Assembly (NCBI GenBank): GCA_963781585.1
Contig: CAWAGQ010000015.1
Coordinates: 1-64,000, forward strand
Direction of reading: 5' to 3'
DNA from: an uncultured Gemmatimonadaceae bacterium
GTDB taxonomy: Bacteria; Gemmatimonadota; Gemmatimonadetes; Gemmatimonadales; Gemmatimonadaceae
Length of the DNA stretch: 64,000 bases
The notes below the pieces were generated by a model. That model was not told the DNA's origin. It saw only the letters and a list, made by a program, of their open reading frames with translations, and ran no database searches. A program made the position numbers and the translations under genes. Shown here one piece after another: positions 3 through 41,621 of the stretch; the first letter of the stretch is position 1, and each line of letters begins with the position of its first letter.

Positions 3-284
3 ACGTACGATCTCATGGCGACCCCGGACGGCACCGGGTGGACCGTGAACTTTGCCAATCGCCCACCTGTGCCCGCCCGCATCGTCAGCGTGGGCGGCGA
101 CAGTATCGTCGTTGAATCCGGCCCCTATGAAAGCGTGCTGCAGAAGGGTGTCCAGGTCTCGACACACACAGTCTTCCACCTGCAGAGCGGCATGCTGAAA
201 GGCATGACCACCGCGCATTACGCCGGCGTCAAGACAGCCGATTCGGTGCGCATGCTGTCGCAGGAAGGAACGAAGAAGCCCTAA
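3..284 (+). CDS. Hypothetical protein, 5'-truncated by the window edge
   Basis: Frame is open from position 3 to TAA at 282-284; beta-strand-rich composition; followed by a hairpin. Confidence 0.7.
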   Translation, partial: TYDLMATPDGTGWTVNFANRPPVPARIVSVGGDSIVVESGPYESVLQKGVQVSTHTVFHLQSGMLKGMTTAHYAGVKTADSVRMLSQEGTKKP

Positions 285-35071: not shown

Positions 35072-35821
35072 CTAGTTCCCCGTCGGTCCAAATCGCTCGG
35101 TCCGGATCCGCGTTGCGTCGTGCCCGAGCTCGACAAGTCCGTTCGCCGCCGCCTCCACGAACGCGGTCGGACCGCAAATGTATGCCAGCGGCCGTTCCTC
35201 CGGAGGCCACGAGACATCACGCATCATATCCCGATCGATCCGTCGCCGGTATCCGGCCCACCGCTCCGGCCACTCCCGCGTGAGTGTGAAGCGAATGTCC
35301 GCCTCATGGTGGGCAGCCAGACGAGCGAGCTCATCCCGATAAATGACCTGCGACAGCGATCGGGCCGAATAGAGCAGTCGCGCCGGAACCGTGCTTCGCA
35401 CCGCCGCCCGGTGCCGCAGCATCGCGCGGAGCGGTACGATGCCGGAGCCGCCGGCCAGCAGGAGCAGCGGTCCGCCGAGCGGCTCGTGCCAGACGAAGTA
35501 CCCACCGATCGGCCCGCGCAGCTCGAGCTCCCCACCCGGCTTGAGCACATCGAACAGATAGGGAGACACTTCTCCTTCCTCGAGGCGCTCCACGGTGAGC
35601 ACGACCATCTCGTCCTCCGGCGCTGACGCGATCGAGTAGCTCCGCTCCGCCTGATATCCGTCCTCGGCCGTCAGGCGGACGTCCACATGCTGTCCCGCCA
35701 GGTGCCCGGGCCACTCCGGCATGTCGAGGACGAGGCTGCGCACGCGGCTGGTTTCATCGATCACATCGACGACTTTCGCGACGTGCCAGTTCAATCGCCC
35801 TGGTAGCGCTGCTCCCGCCAC
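35072..35821 (-). CDS. FAD/NAD(P)-binding ferredoxin-reductase-like oxidoreductase
   Basis: GQHVDV, RSYSIAS, GEVS, GPIG, AGGSGIVP, YICGP, ERF; GTG start 35821. Confidence 0.92.
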   Translation of the reverse strand: MAGAALPGRLNWHVAKVVDVIDETSRVRSLVLDMPEWPGHLAGQHVDVRLTAEDGYQAERSYSIASAPEDEMVVLTVERLEEGEVSPYLFDVLKPGGELELRGPIGGYFVWHEPLGGPLLLLAGGSGIVPLRAMLRHRAAVRSTVPARLLYSARSLSQVIYRDELARLAAHHEADIRFTLTREWPERWAGYRRRIDRDMMRDVSWPPEERPLAYICGPTAFVEAAANGLVELGHDATRIRTERFGPTGN

Positions 35822-36399
35822 GGGTCTCCGTAGTTGTGGTAGCCGTTTACCTCCCAGAACCCGGGCGCGTCGTCCTCGCGCAGCTCGATGCCGCGCACCC
35901 ATTTGGCGCTCTTCCAGAAATACAGGCGCGGGACGAGGAGCCGGGCAGGCCCTCCATGCTCGGGGTGCAGCGGCTGACCATCGTACTCGACCGCGATCCA
36001 CGCCTTCCCGCCGCTGATCTCCGCGAGCGGGAGATTCGTGGTGTAGCCGCCGTCGCTCCAGGCGACGACAAACCCGGCGTTCGCGTCAGGCACCGCCTGC
36101 GCCAGCAGCACATCGAGCGAGACCCCCGTCCACTGCGTGTCCAGCTTGGACCACTTGGTGACGCAGTGAATGTCGACGGTGAAGGACTCTCGAGGGAGCG
36201 CCATGAAATCGTCCCACGACCATGACCGCGGGTTCGCCACCGCGCCACGAATGGCAAAGCTCCACTTCTCGAGCGGCGTGCGCGGGGTAGGGCCCGCGGA
36301 AAGAACCGGAAAGTCGGTGGTGACGTACTGCCCCGGCGGTACGCGCGACGGATCGGCGGCCGTTCGTCTGCCGCGGAATCCGAAGGAGACGGGGGTCAT
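35791..36399 (-). CDS. Sulfite-oxidase-like molybdopterin oxidoreductase, no signal peptide
   Basis: PPGQY, DIHCVTKWS, YTTNLPL, EHGGPARL, YFWKSAKW, GFWE.NGYH. Confidence 0.92.
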   Translation of the reverse strand: MTPVSFGFRGRRTAADPSRVPPGQYVTTDFPVLSAGPTPRTPLEKWSFAIRGAVANPRSWSWDDFMALPRESFTVDIHCVTKWSKLDTQWTGVSLDVLLAQAVPDANAGFVVAWSDGGYTTNLPLAEISGGKAWIAVEYDGQPLHPEHGGPARLLVPRLYFWKSAKWVRGIELREDDAPGFWEVNGYHNYGDPWREQRYQGD

Positions 36400-36409
36400 G
36401 GGGAGCTCC

Positions 36410-38014
36410 TCACTTGGACAGCGGCAGCACGCTGATCGGAAACGAGCCGGTGAGCACGTGCCCGTGTCGCTTGACCTGGACCCAGATCGTGTACTCGCCG
36501 GGCTGCGGAAACGCGTACGGAAAATACAGGGTGTCGCTCATTGGTTCCGATGAGGGCATGACATGGGTCATGTCCATCGGCGCGCCCGGCGCCGCATGCA
36601 TGAGCCGCGCCTGGGCCGCGAGCGAGATGGTCCCGATCGGGTGGAGGTGCACGAACACCTGGCCGTCATTCCTCACGACGGCGGCGTGCGCCGCCATACC
36701 CATGTAGGGCTCCAGCCCGGTCGCGTCGCCTGTCGGCGGCGAGACGGCGAACCGCAGGTCTGCCTCATCGTTCGCGTGCAGGGGGGCCTGCGGCCGCAGC
36801 CAGGTCATCGTGCTGCCGTCCGCCAGCGTGCTGCCGCGCGGGTCAGGACCGGTCGATCCCAATGCCCACGAATCGTCGGGGTCCGGCGTCTGCTCCGGCG
36901 ATCCGGGCACGGCACTGGTTGCTGGTTCAGGCAGATCGACCTCCGACGTCAGCGTTTCCGCGAAGCCGCTCGCGTGGAGGATATCGCCGAATGCCCAATA
37001 GCGACCTGGCGGAAGCGGCGGGAGCGTGACCGCGAACGTTACCGAATCCGCCGTCCTGGGGTGGATGTGTGCGAGCGCCGCGCGTCCGCCCGCCGCGATC
37101 AGATACAGGTGAACGAGCTTGCCGTGATCTTCGATCAGCTCGCTGGGCGGCCGCAGTCCGCGCGCCCGCAGCCAGACCTCATCGTTGCGATGGATCCACG
37201 CCGAGTCCTCGATCGACAGCAGCAGGCGCGACGCGCGCGGACCCGGATCGACGCGGGAGCTGGCCGTCATCGGGCGATACAGCGTGCGGGCGAAGGTCGC
37301 GTCGGCCGAACGCCACCACAGCGCGGACCCGGTCAGCGCCAGAGCGATCACGACCACCGCGCGTGCCATGGCGAAGCGGGCACGGCGCCGGCGCGGCAGA
37401 TCGGGTTCTTCGCCGGGCGCGAGCACGCTCTCGCGCACCGCCGCCCCCACGATCGACACGACGCCTAACGCGAGAAAGAGGCCGGCCGCGATCAGCACGG
37501 CCGCAAGCGGCCGGCTGAACCCCAGCCGTCGCGACGCGACCGCCACCAGAGGTATCACCACCGAACCGGTCCCCTTCCCGCCGCGCACCCCCACGGTCAC
37601 GCTATTGGAGCCGGCGCTCATCACCCACAGCCGGGTGCGATACCAGCCGGGACTGCCGGGGACCGGCGCCGCCACGTCGGGCGGCGGCGCCCCACCGGTG
37701 GCGTCGAACTTGTTCGCGAACGCGGTGACCCGCTCCACCCCGGGCTCGTTCGCCCGCACATTCACGATTGCGATGCCGGGCACCACCGCCGGCGTCTGGA
37801 TGTGCACCAGCACATGGTACGGGCCCGCCGGCCCGTCGTACCACGCGTCGGGGCTGCCCACATGGGCCGAACACACCAGCACTGTTGCGGTGAGCATGGC
37901 GACCCGCTTGACGAGCGCTGGAATGCCGCCGCGACGGACGTACGGCTCGTGCCGCGGTCCCGTCCCTGCGGGGTGCGCCACAGGCGCGGCCGGCGACGGC
38001 CAGGCCACGGACAT
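36410..38014 (-). CDS. His-rich membrane-anchored periplasmic protein, putative copper-binding
   Basis: Signal-like segment ending VCSA-HVGSP; two central TM helices; HGKLVH..AHIHP and MGMAAH..VHLHP; start uncertain. Confidence 0.7.
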   Translation of the reverse strand: MSVAWPSPAAPVAHPAGTGPRHEPYVRRGGIPALVKRVAMLTATVLVCSAHVGSPDAWYDGPAGPYHVLVHIQTPAVVPGIAIVNVRANEPGVERVTAFANKFDATGGAPPPDVAAPVPGSPGWYRTRLWVMSAGSNSVTVGVRGGKGTGSVVIPLVAVASRRLGFSRPLAAVLIAAGLFLALGVVSIVGAAVRESVLAPGEEPDLPRRRRARFAMARAVVVIALALTGSALWWRSADATFARTLYRPMTASSRVDPGPRASRLLLSIEDSAWIHRNDEVWLRARGLRPPSELIEDHGKLVHLYLIAAGGRAALAHIHPRTADSVTFAVTLPPLPPGRYWAFGDILHASGFAETLTSEVDLPEPATSAVPGSPEQTPDPDDSWALGSTGPDPRGSTLADGSTMTWLRPQAPLHANDEADLRFAVSPPTGDATGLEPYMGMAAHAAVVRNDGQVFVHLHPIGTISLAAQARLMHAAPGAPMDMTHVMPSSEPMSDTLYFPYAFPQPGEYTIWVQVKRHGHVLTGSFPISVLPLSK

Positions 38015-38034
38015 CACCGCGACACGCACGCGTT

Positions 38035-39204
38035 TCACCGCTGCACCCGTCCCATGCCCGACCCGATCCACAATCCCAGGCGCGACGTGACTACGGCTGT
38101 GACAATCGCGATCGCCAGCGTCCGCGCGAACGCGAGGGCGTTGGGCTCGGGCGTCCAGAACTGATACCGCCAGTCACCGAGCCGCACGTAGTAGTCCCAA
38201 TGGTCCGCGCCGAAGACGAAATTGCGCGCGTGAGGCATGAGCAGGAACTCACCCCACCACCAATGCGCCGCGAGCATCAGGAGCACGAACGACACGCCGA
38301 TCGTCACCGACAACACCCCGTCGCGCCCACGCAGCCGGCGCATCAGCAGATCGATCGCCAACGCCGGCACCACCACCAGCAGCGGAAACGGGGGCGGCAC
38401 CATGTGGGTGACCGGATTGTAGATCGGCGCCAGCTTGGGTGTGGCGGGAAAAAGCTGCAGCGTCCACATCATCACGAGGACGATCGACATGTAGATCGTC
38501 GCCGTGGTCGTGGCCGGCCACCGCAGCCGCGATGGCCGGGAGGTGGCCGTGAGGATCAGCGGCATGCCGATCGCCGTGAGCCGGTAGAAGCGTCCGGCGT
38601 GCATGTCGTTCGGGAACGCCGCGTACTCCATCAGCACCGTCGCGTGCATGGTGAGCAGAATCCCCGCCGATGCCGCGTAGAGCATTCCGAGCCGTCGCTG
38701 GGTATCCGGTGTCGCCCGGTTCTGCCTGGCGAGGCACATCAGCATTGCGCCGATCTCGATGGCGATCATGCCCCAGGCGAGCACCATGTGTGGCGGGCTC
38801 ATGATCTTCACGTCCAGGCCGTACGCGTCGTGCCACCAGTTGTCGAGCGGCGCGGACGTGATCATCATCAGCGTCCCCCAGATGCATAACCAGGCGCCGA
38901 GCGGACCGCGGAACCCCCAGAAACGCACCCCCCGTGTGTGGGCCGCGGGATCGCCGAACGTCATCCGCAACACGAGTGTCCCACACGTTGCGCCCGCCAC
39001 GATCGCGGCCAACTGCTCGAGCAGGTGGGCGGGGGTCCAGAATGTGTCGCGCCCGATGGTGCGGTGCCACGAAATGTCCCAGATCAGCCCCACCACGATC
39101 GACACCGACGCGAACAGCACCGCGTAAAGGGGCCACATCCGCTCCGTGACCTGAGCTCGTGCGGCGCTCCGGACCACTGGGGTCGCTTCGATGATCGTGC
39201 TCAC
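38035..39204 (-). CDS. Polytopic membrane protein with PmoC/AmoC-like copper motifs
   Basis: About 10 TM segments; DISWHRTIGRDTFWTPAH and LDNWWHDAYGLDVKIMSPPH; GTGA overlap with the GH15 gene. Confidence 0.75.
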   Translation of the reverse strand: MSTIIEATPVVRSAARAQVTERMWPLYAVLFASVSIVVGLIWDISWHRTIGRDTFWTPAHLLEQLAAIVAGATCGTLVLRMTFGDPAAHTRGVRFWGFRGPLGAWLCIWGTLMMITSAPLDNWWHDAYGLDVKIMSPPHMVLAWGMIAIEIGAMLMCLARQNRATPDTQRRLGMLYAASAGILLTMHATVLMEYAAFPNDMHAGRFYRLTAIGMPLILTATSRPSRLRWPATTTATIYMSIVLVMMWTLQLFPATPKLAPIYNPVTHMVPPPFPLLVVVPALAIDLLMRRLRGRDGVLSVTIGVSFVLLMLAAHWWWGEFLLMPHARNFVFGADHWDYYVRLGDWRYQFWTPEPNALAFARTLAIAIVTAVVTSRLGLWIGSGMGRVQR

Positions 39205-41621
39205 CTGGGGACCGATTCCTGGGAATGCACTCCTGCGAGAGGCGGGGCCGCGGCATCAACTGCCACGTGGAAATCCCGGCCCACCCATTCCGCGCTGTCG
39301 CGCCATTGGAATGTGAAGTCTACCACGCGCGCCTGTGACGACGGAGCTACGCCGAGCTCGAAGGCGTGCAGACCAAGGCCGGTATCGTCGGTCTCACCAT
39401 CGGACGGACTCTGCCAGCCATTCACACCCCAGTGGATGCGCGCAGCACGGGGCACCGCCACCACGAGCGACGACCCGCGCTCGATCCGGCCAATGGGCGC
39501 ATGAAGGCACCAGATGGCGCGCCGGGCATCCGGCCGCCGGCCGCCGTAACGCCGCCACACCGCCGCCGGCCGGTCGAACGGATATCCCAGGTGACGCGAG
39601 ATCATCAGCTTCAGAAACTCCGCGTGCGCCCACACCAAGGGCATGGCCGCTCCGGTGGGCCGGCCCGGGAAGAGCCGCAGTGCCGGCAGGGCATCCGTGT
39701 CCCACACCTGCTCCGGCATCATGCCGCCCGGTCCCACCATTGCCGCCATCACTTTCAGATAGGACGAGGGATCGTTACCCGCGGCCAGCTCGTAGTGCCC
39801 GCGCTCGCCCGTCAGCAGCGGCCAGGCACGTCCCCGGCCACTCCCATCGAACGGACGGCCGTCGCGATGCTCGCCATATCCGTCGCCATTGTAGCGATGC
39901 CACGCGGGCCCACTCGGCGTCTCCACCTTGAGCAGGGCGTCGGCCACCTTCAGGCTGCCGCGAACGCACGGATCGTCCGGCGCCCGCAGACCGAAACGCA
40001 CGAGCTGCAGGAAATCCAGGCTGACCTGCTCGTCGGCCGGCACGCCGGACATCTGTCGCCGATTCTTGATCTCGAGCATGCCCTCCAGCGACGCGCGGTC
40101 GTGCAGCACCTCCGGGGGCGCCACTCGCACGTAGTAGCTTTCCACGCCAACACGCCTGGCGAGTGGCGTGTCCTGCGCCGCCATCCACGACTCGGCGCGC
40201 GAATTCCAGAAATCGGCCAGCGCGAGGGCGAGCCGCTTCGCCGGCGCGTGCACGAACTCCGCACCCGCAACCAGTGCCGCGATACACACCGCCAGCGTGA
40301 ACGGATTGATCCCCGCGTTCTCTTCCCACCGGTCCTGGTCGCTCGATGGTCCCGTGGTCGCGAGGAACGACAGGGCACGAGCGATCATGTCGTGCACCAC
40401 GATGCCCTGCAGAGCATCGCGCTCCGCGAGCGCGGCAGCGAGCAGCACCGGGAACGCGACCTCGTCCAGCTGCAGACCTTCCCAGTATGGAGTCCCGCCA
40501 AGCCACTGGTTCTGGTTCCAGCTTCCGTCCTGCCTCTGGGTGGCGATCAGGTAGCGGAGGGTGTTGCGTGCCTCCTTCTCGGCGCCTAACGCGAGAAAGG
40601 CGCTCGCGCACTGCACCAGGTCGCGCGGCCACACCAGGTGATAGCCGCCGCGATCGTCCCGGCTGTTGCCCCACGGTACGCTCAGGCTCGCGACCATCGC
40701 GCCGGGATACGTCTTGTCGCAGTGCGCGCGCAGCACCATGGTGGAGAGATGGAACTGCTCGGCGAACTCGTCTGCCTCATCGGGTCGGAGCAGGGTGCGT
40801 CGTTCGCGGCGCGCATGCCACTGGCGCCACATCTCGATCTGGCGCTCGAGGATGGAATCGAACGGCTGCATCAGAGTCGAAACAGCCAGCGTGGCAGCCG
40901 AGTGCATGCTGCTCCCGAAACCGAGCCCCAGGACCGACACGCGGGGCAGCGCCCCGATCATGGCGACGTTCCCGGGACCGGCGCTGGCGTACTGCCACGT
41001 GAGGGCGCCGTTGCGATGAAAATCCTGCCAGCCGTCGCTCTCGCCCACATACCCGGCGCTGGCGGCGCCCAGCGCGTCCTGCTGGGCCTCGTCCACGGCC
41101 GCCAGCGCGAGCCCGAAAGGTCCCTGCTCCGCCGCCAGCACACGGCGCGTTCCATAGCGCGCGATGACCGCCGTGTTCTCACGGCCACTGGTGCCGAGTC
41201 GGGGAGCGATGAGCACGTAGGGCCGAAGGTCGTCGTCGCCGGTAAGGCGCACGTCGATCACCAGCGCGTCCCGGTCGGGATCCGGCGTAATCCTCAGTGC
41301 GAGGGCGAAGCGCTCGTGCGTGTGGACGATCTCGACGGCGGGTGTCCCCGGGCCGAGCAGCCGCAATCGGTAGTTCTCGAGGCGTTTGACCTCGACCCAG
41401 AACCCACGTCCGTCGCCAACGATGAACCCGAGGTCGCGAATCTGCGCCAGGTCCACTCTCGGATAGTATACCTCGTTGATGATTCCGAAGCCGAGCGTGA
41501 ACCAGACGCGCGACCGGCCCAGCGCGCAGCCGACAACGTCCTTGGCGCTGCTGCACCAGGTGGGCGCGATACCCGGACTGCCTGGGGCCTCGCCTCGTGG
41601 CTCTTCTCCGGAATCATGCAT
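39201..41621 (-). CDS. GH15 glucoamylase/glucodextranase-type glycoside hydrolase
   Basis: TWCSSAKD, YHLVWPRD, QLDE, QDRWEE, RYNGDGYGE, WPLLTGERGHYE, PEQVWD, PLVWAHAE. Confidence 0.93.
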   Translation of the reverse strand: MHDSGEEPRGEAPGSPGIAPTWCSSAKDVVGCALGRSRVWFTLGFGIINEVYYPRVDLAQIRDLGFIVGDGRGFWVEVKRLENYRLRLLGPGTPAVEIVHTHERFALALRITPDPDRDALVIDVRLTGDDDLRPYVLIAPRLGTSGRENTAVIARYGTRRVLAAEQGPFGLALAAVDEAQQDALGAASAGYVGESDGWQDFHRNGALTWQYASAGPGNVAMIGALPRVSVLGLGFGSSMHSAATLAVSTLMQPFDSILERQIEMWRQWHARRERRTLLRPDEADEFAEQFHLSTMVLRAHCDKTYPGAMVASLSVPWGNSRDDRGGYHLVWPRDLVQCASAFLALGAEKEARNTLRYLIATQRQDGSWNQNQWLGGTPYWEGLQLDEVAFPVLLAAALAERDALQGIVVHDMIARALSFLATTGPSSDQDRWEENAGINPFTLAVCIAALVAGAEFVHAPAKRLALALADFWNSRAESWMAAQDTPLARRVGVESYYVRVAPPEVLHDRASLEGMLEIKNRRQMSGVPADEQVSLDFLQLVRFGLRAPDDPCVRGSLKVADALLKVETPSGPAWHRYNGDGYGEHRDGRPFDGSGRGRAWPLLTGERGHYELAAGNDPSSYLKVMAAMVGPGGMMPEQVWDTDALPALRLFPGRPTGAAMPLVWAHAEFLKLMISRHLGYPFDRPAAVWRRYGGRRPDARRAIWCLHAPIGRIERGSSLVVAVPRAARIHWGVNGWQSPSDGETDDTGLGLHAFELGVAPSSQARVVDFTFQWRDSAEWVGRDFHVAVDAAAPPLAGVHSQESVPR

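Follow-up and report, generated by a model that had tools for sequence, protein, structure and literature searches.

In a 64,000-nucleotide window (the whole stretch analysed here, positions 1 to 64,000 of contig CAWAGQ010000015.1 from an uncultured Gemmatimonadaceae bacterium), we analysed a minus-strand open reading frame (ORF) that encodes a 389-residue membrane protein and overlaps the start of a second gene, the product of which we call the partner. A first-pass annotation had delimited the ORF correctly and had proposed that it encodes a PmoC-PmoA-like fusion, PmoC and PmoA being subunits C and A in the copper membrane monooxygenases (CuMMOs), among them particulate methane monooxygenase (pMMO) as well as ammonia monooxygenase (AMO). 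Our analysis supports that reading through distant but specific PmoC homology in the N-terminal half and a PmoA fold in the C-terminal half. The fused protein of this soil-type bacterium looks like an unannotated, undescribed and widespread distant relative of methane and ammonia monooxygenases, and it is very probably homologous to the CuMMO C plus A core. The features of the gene pair are as follows (TM, transmembrane).

38035..39204, minus strand: gene for the fused PmoC-core/PmoA-like membrane protein, an ORF of 389 residues from GTG 39204
38716..39135, minus strand: putative PmoC/AmoC-like four-helix bundle, residues 24-163 (Pfam, NCBIfam, PDB, profile and hhalign matches)
39025..39078, minus strand: CuC-like site motif D43-x3-H47-x12-H60, DISWHRTIGRDTFWTPAH, aligned to the D/H/H of AmoC/PmoC
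38788..38844, minus strand: CuD-like site motif D121-x3-H125-x13-H139, DNWWHDAYGLDVKIMSPPH, aligned to the N/H/H of AmoC/PmoC
38038..38712, minus strand: predicted PmoA/AmoA-fold half, residues 165-389 (structure re-alignment, Foldseek)
36410..38038, minus strand: partner gene, its GTG 38038 overlapping the TGA of the fused gene as GTGA
37862..37864, minus strand: codon of partner His12, predicted residue 1 of the mature protein (...CSA/HVGSPD), conserved in alignment A2
37286..37513, minus strand: the partner's two TM helices, residues 129-156 and 167-204 of the 495-residue form (model secondary structure)
36425..37267, minus strand: the partner's two predicted periplasmic His-rich beta-sandwich domains, residues 211-322 and 343-491 (alignment and model)

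The fused protein and its putative metal sites

An alternative start of the fused gene at ATG 39138, preceded by GGAG, gives a protein of 367 residues; a database protein with 94% identity is also 367 residues long. A scan for promoters and terminators gave no signal over the shuffled expectation. For modelling and conservation analysis we used an alignment of 64 full-length sequences (A1), which includes 59 of 150 listed cluster representatives and 4 of 120 listed homologues and leaves out shorter or fragmentary sequences. The AlphaFold2 model built on A1 (predicted local distance difference test score, pLDDT, 93.7; predicted TM-score, pTM, 0.91) contains helices 24-49, 58-83, 102-128 and 137-163 followed by six further helices. 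The Arg-rich segments of the sequence (1-23, 84-101 and 160-171) fit the cytoplasmic side, so that both motif sites would lie where helix pairs 1/2 and 3/4 end on the periplasmic side. By this positive-inside pattern and the model, both sites are placed, we infer, at the periplasmic face of the membrane.

Both motifs occur in the ORF as first described, with D121 61 residues beyond H60 and GTLMMITSAPL just before D121. The identity of 11 of 18 positions that had been claimed for the first motif holds against the PmoC string of 6cxh_C and 7s4l_C. Conservation of the six putative ligands, which had been named as a check, proved high, each column being kept in 53-64 of the 64 sequences of A1:

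D43: 64 of 64 homologues, no other residue
H47: 53 of 64 homologues, others Q, E, D, T
H60: 63 of 64 homologues, A in one
D121: 63 of 64 homologues, one E, never Asn
H125: 57 of 64 homologues, five Q, one T, one S
H139: 57 of 64 homologues, five Q, one F, one E

With the CuC and CuD ligand types of CuMMOs taken from the consulted portion of a 2026 AMO review (PMC13058606), the complete CuC set (D-x3-H-x12-H) is present, as D43, H47 and H60 align with the AmoC/PmoC ligands. Of the CuD set (N-x3-H-x13-H) both His residues align and the first ligand is Asp. Asn is invariant at this position in 9 of 9 PmoC sequences aligned, whereas 63 of 64 family members carry Asp, and the family therefore differs consistently from CuMMOs at the first CuD ligand.

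Many cluster representatives of 277-297 residues (P0170, P0171, P0178 and P0184 among them) begin exactly at the equivalent of residue 114, just before the second motif, and other representatives begin at 132-133; these may be internal-Met gene calls on partial contigs or a real form that lacks the first site. Separately, genome G517 encodes a 367-residue paralogue (L104:1544-2647, plus strand) that retains the PmoA-like half (positions 168-382 of the family profile matched at E about 1e-62), has lost both D/H/H motifs from its N-terminal half and has no partner gene downstream; a similar match is found in G554. Judged by its sequence, the G517 paralogue is a metal-site-free offshoot of the family.

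Relationship of the two halves to PmoC and PmoA

The first-pass annotation had described the N-terminal half as a PmoC-like core, and our sequence searches agree, as AmoC/PmoC is the sole family they recover and the six ligand columns align. In Pfam only AmoC (PF04896) is matched (E 1.1e-3, residues 42-149 against profile positions 124-227 of 245), and NCBIfam gives only TIGR03078 (E 6.9e-4) and NF041641 (E 3e-3). A phmmer search of 177,635 PDB sequences returned five matches at E <= 10, four of them AmoC/PmoC (best 9leg_C, E 1.6e-4) with all six ligand positions of the fused protein paired in the alignments, and the fifth an unrelated acetyltransferase (E 0.52). When a profile of the 64-member family was compared with the PDB, all five matches at E <= 10 were AmoC/PmoC (best 3.6e-4), and AmoC was the only recurrent Pfam family among the individual members (12/64 at E <= 1).

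Profile-profile comparison with hhalign used references from genuine pmoCAB operons found via PF04896, from which 9 PmoC, 8 PmoA and 5 PmoB sequences were aligned; one such operon was verified with Pfam (PmoC 2e-99, PmoA 5.8e-102, PmoB 8e-113). The family matches the 9 PmoC sequences with a probability of 72-74% and E 2.8e-5 to 3.5e-5 over 93-94 columns that cover both motifs (query 35-140 against PmoC 112-218). In 28 control rows, comprising reversed alignments, wrong subunits and the partner family, scores did not exceed 24.0 and E was at least 0.015. Residues other than the ligands are also held in common: W46-H47, R52-D53-T54 and T57-P58-x-H60 correspond to the invariant PmoC residues W131-H132, R137-D138-T139 and T142-P143-S144-H145. 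The spacing of the motifs is by itself weak evidence, as a search of this His-rich, 67% G+C genome for the bare double pattern finds it in 11 of the 29,984 six-frame segments that are 100 residues or longer, one of them the fused gene; it is sequence context and conservation that raise the double motif above chance. Homology of the four N-terminal helices to the PmoC/AmoC metal-site core, distant but specific, is strongly supported at the level of sequence. It extends over part of PmoC: matches begin at profile position 112-124 of 245-275, and the fused protein has 23 residues before helix 1.

For the C-terminal half the evidence is structural. Comparison with pMMO/AMO structures had been suggested in the first-pass annotation, and when it was carried out the sole high-probability Foldseek rows (0.97-0.99) were PmoA/AmoA chains, the identity of which was confirmed by a search with a PmoA query; a Foldseek search with the whole model gave no match at E <= 1e-3. 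Re-alignment of the Foldseek top 1000 placed 12 PmoA/AmoA entries first (Z 14.6-15.6, root-mean-square deviation 3.4-5.3 A), with 185-214 residues aligned between residues 165..389 of the model and 18..243 of the chain, and the next unrelated entry at Z 9.3. A Foldseek-independent search of 48,161 chains also found an older PmoA entry, 3chx_B, at Z 9.9. These results support a PmoA/AmoA fold for residues 165-389 of the predicted model. The annotation had further pointed to PmoA/AmoA-like sequence segments, RLRWPAT and FPLLVVVPALAIDLL; both are found in the C-terminal half of the fused protein, and while the fold was borne out, the sequence resemblance was not, the hhalign score lying inside the noise band. 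These segments do make up the top local alignment to PmoA, which pairs F273-P274...D285 with the invariant F116-P117...D128, again with a score within noise. As sequence gives no support, the relation to PmoA is a fold-level statement.

Several results weigh against reading the fused protein as a CuMMO relative. All AmoC/PmoC scores fall below the curated cut-offs (18.8 against 26.7 bits for PF04896, 19.2 against 280.6 for TIGR03078 and 16.9 against 319 for NF041641), the hhalign probability to PmoC reaches only 74%, and site 2 carries Asp where CuMMOs carry Asn. The fold of the N-terminal half (residues 18-166) matches generic four-helix bundles at Z 9-12, with no PmoC chain among the matches listed. 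S-components of energy-coupling factor (ECF) transporters match the C-terminal half as well (5edl_A in the Foldseek-independent search, Z 12.4, 163 residues aligned), and a Z of about 13 can arise in helical bundles from their arrangement alone. Similarity to PmoA in sequence was not found by hhalign (E 0.12 for the whole protein and 0.018 for the C-terminal half, inside the control band), nor did PF02461 match any of the 64 family members at E <= 1.

Such sub-threshold scores would also be expected if the resemblance to PmoC and PmoA were convergent or due to chance and the gene encoded an unrelated polytopic membrane protein. The occurrence of the bare double motif in 10 other six-frame segments of the genome, and the proneness of helical-bundle fold matches to error, point the same way. 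On the other hand, four different searches return AmoC/PmoC as the sole family, the hhalign match lies far above the 28 control rows, the non-ligand signature residues are common to PmoC, and the adjacent domain has an independent match to the PmoA fold, in the operon order C-A. We consider chance or convergence very unlikely.

The partner, the predicted complex and the genomic setting

In 79 of 80 loci the fused gene has a homologue of the partner downstream of it, on the same strand, and in the remaining one the contig ends 5 bases past the fused gene; here and below, locus and neighbour counts out of 80 refer to the best 80 of at least 598 confirmed matches. An obligate pairing of the two genes is strongly supported. 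Besides the GTG at 38038, the partner gene has a database form that starts at ATG 37897 (495 residues), and its longest ORF reaches 38071. Alignment A2 consists of the window partner and 54 of 61 full-length neighbours (n=55), five with doubtful long N-termini and two near-duplicates having been left out. His12 is present in 54/55 of these sequences, the residue before it, at the end of the signal peptide, being A in 41, G in 13 and T in 1, and seven further His residues are invariant (H258, H263, H277, H279, H404, H417 and H419).

The AlphaFold2 model of the partner (pLDDT 91.4) consists of an N-terminal beta-sandwich (18-119), two TM helices and two more beta-domains. This is the topology of PmoB, a periplasmic beta-domain, two TM helices and a periplasmic beta-domain, with one extra beta-domain. 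Fold searches with the partner are led by generic Ig/FnIII domains, CBM56, CrdA and CopC, and PmoB is absent among the 50 best matches listed in either search of the whole 495-residue model. The best matches of the N-terminal domain include CBM56 (Z 10.5), CrdA (Z 10.0, 100/108 residues aligned), CopC (Z 8.2) and HftA (Z 8.0). The partner profile has two matches in the PDB, one of which is CrdA (E 0.18). Among the 55 members, YtkA is matched in 8 (best E 2.9e-6) and CopC in 7 (best E 0.013), with the window partner itself matching CopC at E 0.061, under the cut-off.

Alignments A1 and A2 were used to co-fold the mature partner (residues 12-495) and the fused protein. Whereas the best of three controls scores 0.00, the interface score ipSAE of the pair is 0.79 (0.80, 0.77 and 0.79 in the three runs); contacts agree between the runs to at least 93%, and the pLDDT of the partner is at least 81. 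The ipSAE mark is reached by 116/157 solved complexes and 2/215 mismatched pairs, counts that hold only roughly with our own alignments. In the predicted complex, TM helix 1 of the partner packs on helix 102-128 of the fused protein, and loops 38-41, 60-72 and 91-98 of its N-terminal domain touch residues 125-140, around H125 and H139, and 255-264. The co-fold supports binding of the fused protein to its partner.

The family is large. More than 7,250 proteins score at E <= 1e-3 among 8,000 candidates, and the 120 homologues listed are all without precomputed Pfam domains and unnamed or called 'hypothetical'. Clustering at 50% identity gives 2,029 clusters at E <= 1e-3, 257 of them at E <= 1e-30. 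In contigs from one genome per species, at least 598 of at least 599 pattern matches were confirmed, and the best 80 come from metagenome-assembled genomes labelled Gemmatimonadota, Acidobacteriota (Vicinamibacterales, Thermoanaerobaculia), Eisenbacteria, Methylomirabilota and Verrucomicrobiota. In our sample of the phylum to which the window belongs, the family is present in 70/301 genomes and 34/128 genera (G587, which is flagged unpublished, being counted in). A single copy of the fused gene is present in the genome of the window. Canonical amo/pmo genes had been reported as absent from the window, and this extends to the whole 5.7-Mb genome (93.5% complete), in which PF02461 and PF04744 have no match and PF04896 matches only the fused ORF; five other carrier genomes have no PF04896 match above the cut-off. 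In the ESM Atlas the fused protein matched nothing but unnamed clusters, and the leads for the partner all stayed under 0.9. A look for public sequencing runs listed neither a run nor an RNA holder. In the literature, most subscription journals lying outside the search, we found no description of a fused PmoC-PmoA-like family or of a PmoC relative in these phyla. One paper that names both pmoC and Gemmatimonadetes (PMC8782848) is, in the part consulted, irrelevant to the fused family.

Upstream of the fused gene in the window lies a GH15 glucoamylase/glucodextranase gene (39201..41621, minus strand; Glucodextran_N 5.7e-81, TIGR01535 1.3e-176), the TGA of which overlaps GTG 39204 as GTGA, suggesting co-translation at this locus. 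Immediately downstream of the partner, at 35072..36399 on the minus strand, comes a gene for a molybdopterin-binding oxidoreductase (PF00174, 2.5e-40), overlapped by one for an FAD/NAD(P)-binding reductase (PF00970, PF00175). A GH15 homologue is near the pair in 0/80 loci, the molybdopterin oxidoreductase in 2/80 and the FAD/NAD reductase in 0/80, and on these counts we rejected all three as conserved context and treat them as local neighbours only. Other candidates for general neighbours, a redoxin, CcdA, two-component systems and an FAA-hydrolase, proved to be clade-specific, each in at most 11/80 loci. In eight Gemmatimonadota loci (L009, L010, L014, L017, L019, L020, L023 and L024) an unannotated ORF of about 272 residues with a faint LiaG-like match (E 6e-6, far under the cut-off) lies on the same strand 37-128 bases upstream of the pair; further upstream, a TlpA-like redoxin is found in 11/80 loci and CcdA/DsbD_TM in 7/80.

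Two further loci were considered. An apparent natural split form in G412 (L103, a 2,355-base contig) was rejected: the gene is interrupted by a frameshift at about residue 160, almost at the boundary of the C-like and A-like parts, which is probably an assembly error or a pseudogene. G137 is a methanotroph-type genome in which pmoC is present three times. Its third copy precedes a PmoA-sized ORF of 246 residues (L096:11248-11985, plus strand), after which comes a glucose-6-phosphate dehydrogenase gene. Neither PF02461 (at E <= 0.01) nor a BLASTP comparison with PmoA gives a match for this ORF, which may encode a very divergent or an unrelated membrane protein in the pmoA position.

Candidate function and comparison with known systems

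The product of the two genes, which are translationally coupled, is in our proposal a metalloprotein complex of two subunits in the inner membrane, a deep relative of the CuMMOs pMMO and AMO. Subunit 1 would be a single chain in which four PmoC/AmoC-like helices carrying two 2-His+Asp sites are followed by six helices of PmoA/AmoA fold. Subunit 2, encoded in the pmoB gene position, would combine a PmoB-like topology with a mature N-terminal His and the seven invariant His residues. The two sites may bind copper, as the first-pass annotation had suggested with due caution, the partner may dock over the site-2 loop and supply copper or electrons, and the intramembrane copper sites could then activate O2 to oxidise a small or hydrophobic substrate. 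An enzymatic role is suggested because the sole relatives of the fused protein are catalytic subunits, because the sites and the A scaffold have been kept over deep divergence, and because the domain order, C-A and then the partner, is colinear with pmoC-pmoA-pmoB. That the complex is a CuMMO-like oxidase is in our estimate a tentative reading, a little short of an even chance. The fuller claim, that the pair is a functional deep-branching sister lineage of the CuMMOs activating O2 at PmoC-type copper sites in soil heterotroph phyla (Gemmatimonadota, Acidobacteriota and others), we regard as doubtful.

Other observations count against the enzymatic reading. The partner has no sequence link to PmoB, as PF04744 gives no match and hhalign a probability of 0.3% (E 0.2), no better than the reversed control, and its domains resemble the copper-trafficking proteins CrdA, CopC and YtkA rather than PmoB. 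The gene is accessory within the phylum, and no catabolic genes recur nearby, no gene family besides the pair being found in more than 11/80 loci.

A rival reading is a non-catalytic module for copper acquisition, relay or insertion. In such a module the partner would capture copper in the manner of CopC, YcnI or CrdA and hand it to the two intramembrane sites, from which it would be passed across or along the membrane or loaded into other cuproenzymes. Cu(II) sites of the CopC/YcnI type typically include an N-terminal His, the best matches of the partner's N-terminal domain include the copper proteins CrdA, CopC and HftA, and CrdA is one of only two profile matches in the PDB, beside the YtkA and CopC matches among the members. 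The occasional upstream TlpA-like redoxin and CcdA/DsbD_TM genes point to periplasmic maturation, and the gene is an accessory, mostly single-copy one, in heterotrophs and without recurrent catabolic neighbours. However, the fused protein has no CopD domain and its only relatives are enzyme subunits, transport has no obvious need for a whole PmoA-like scaffold and two complete sites, and the copper-protein matches of the partner are all weak, generic Ig-like folds scoring equally. Nor does the pair replace CopD. An anti-correlation of the two was looked for and rejected overall, CopD being present in 45/70 pair-positive and 156/231 pair-negative genomes (201/301 in the phylum sample, a tally that includes the unpublished G502 and G562); inside one family the figures are 10/33 and 49/92, for genomes that are kin and not independent. 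We hold the copper-relay account to be possible, with a confidence clearly below even.

The sites might instead hold another metal (Zn, Fe or Mn), or serve sensing or a structural role, without redox chemistry. Zinc has been held in crystals at the equivalent PmoC site. Sites of the 2-His+carboxylate type are not copper-specific, 6-7 of 80 loci have two-component systems in the vicinity, and in the G517 paralogue the PmoA-like half persists with both motifs and the partner gone. However, these two-component systems are generic, rare and under every curated cut-off for metal-specific types, and copper proteins account for all of the partner's weak family signals. According to the consulted portion of PMC13058606, copper is bound at these positions in the closest relatives. 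A metal other than copper, or a sensing or structural role, appears improbable, and we return to the CuMMO-like complex for what it would mean.

CuMMOs control methane and ammonia oxidation, and their active site is debated between CuC and CuD of subunit C, as described in the portion of PMC13058606 consulted. In the part of Khadka et al. 2018 (PMC6215863) that we used, CuMMO trees lack a true outgroup, and the most distant CuMMO branch served as 'a logical outgroup'. The fused family offers an outgroup for the C and A subunits with which to root CuMMO evolution, a natural experiment that bears on which of the enzyme's parts are essential, B having been swapped for a different His-rich partner, and a simpler two-chain target for expression and structure determination. 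If the pair is a CuMMO sister lineage, it would be a naturally fused and simpler scaffold for studying the disputed CuC/CuD active site, and it would oxidise an unrecognised substrate, possibly a trace gas or a small nitrogen or carbon compound; if it is catalytic, common soil heterotrophs would harbour an unrecognised copper oxygenase. If it is instead a copper relay, this would suggest that CuMMOs arose from copper-handling machinery as a catalytic offshoot.

Among known systems the copper-handling pairs CopC-CopD, YcnI-YcnJ and CrdA are alike in that a periplasmic His-first beta-sandwich is paired with a polytopic His-bearing membrane protein. They differ in that the CopD domain (PF05425) was not matched in the fused protein, nor is it one of the 25 families listed across the 64 members; the window's genome has 2 separate CopD matches elsewhere, and the pair and CopD coexist in 45 of the 70 pair-positive genomes. 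ECF S-components (5edl_A) have a six-helix arrangement like that of the C-terminal half, with fewer residues aligned (163 compared with 200) and a lower Z (12.4 compared with 15.6) than PmoA, but they have no sequence or context link to the fused protein and no high Foldseek probability.

The closest comparison is with the CuMMO subunits themselves. PmoC/AmoC (PF04896, TIGR03078; 9leg_C, 9cl6_C, 6cxh_C, 7s4l_C) has the same two helix-hairpin sites, spaced identically as D-x3-H-x12-H and x-x3-H-x13-H, and carries the W-H...R-D-T..T-P-x-H signature; its four TM helices come in the order seen in the fused protein, and the positive-inside pattern of the sequence would place both sites at the periplasmic face. 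The fused protein differs in lacking the first ~110 residues of PmoC, in having Asp for Asn at site 2, in Trp-rich motifs of its own family (W42-D-x-S-W-H and D-x-W-W-H), and in being joined to an A-like domain outside any xmoCAB operon. With PmoA/AmoA (PF02461; 6cxh_B, 7s4h_B, 9cl6_B, 9leg_A and others) it shares a fold in residues 165-389 that spans nearly the whole chain (18..243), and the A-like domain comes directly after the C-like one, in the same order as pmoC and pmoA; the structural alignments show 10-13% identity, the sequence similarity is insignificant, and the domain is covalently fused to the C-like part. The partner resembles PmoB/AmoB (PF04744) in its gene position after C and A, its signal peptide and its topology of a beta-domain, two TM helices and a beta-domain. 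The mature protein of proteobacterial PmoB begins with a His that belongs to the CuB site, and the partner is likewise His-first, but it has three beta-domains, with H-x-H motifs in the C-terminal YtkA/CopC-like domains. Whereas the CuMMO holoenzyme is encoded by three genes, xmoC, xmoA and xmoB, the fused family has two, with C and A joined, in 79/80 loci.

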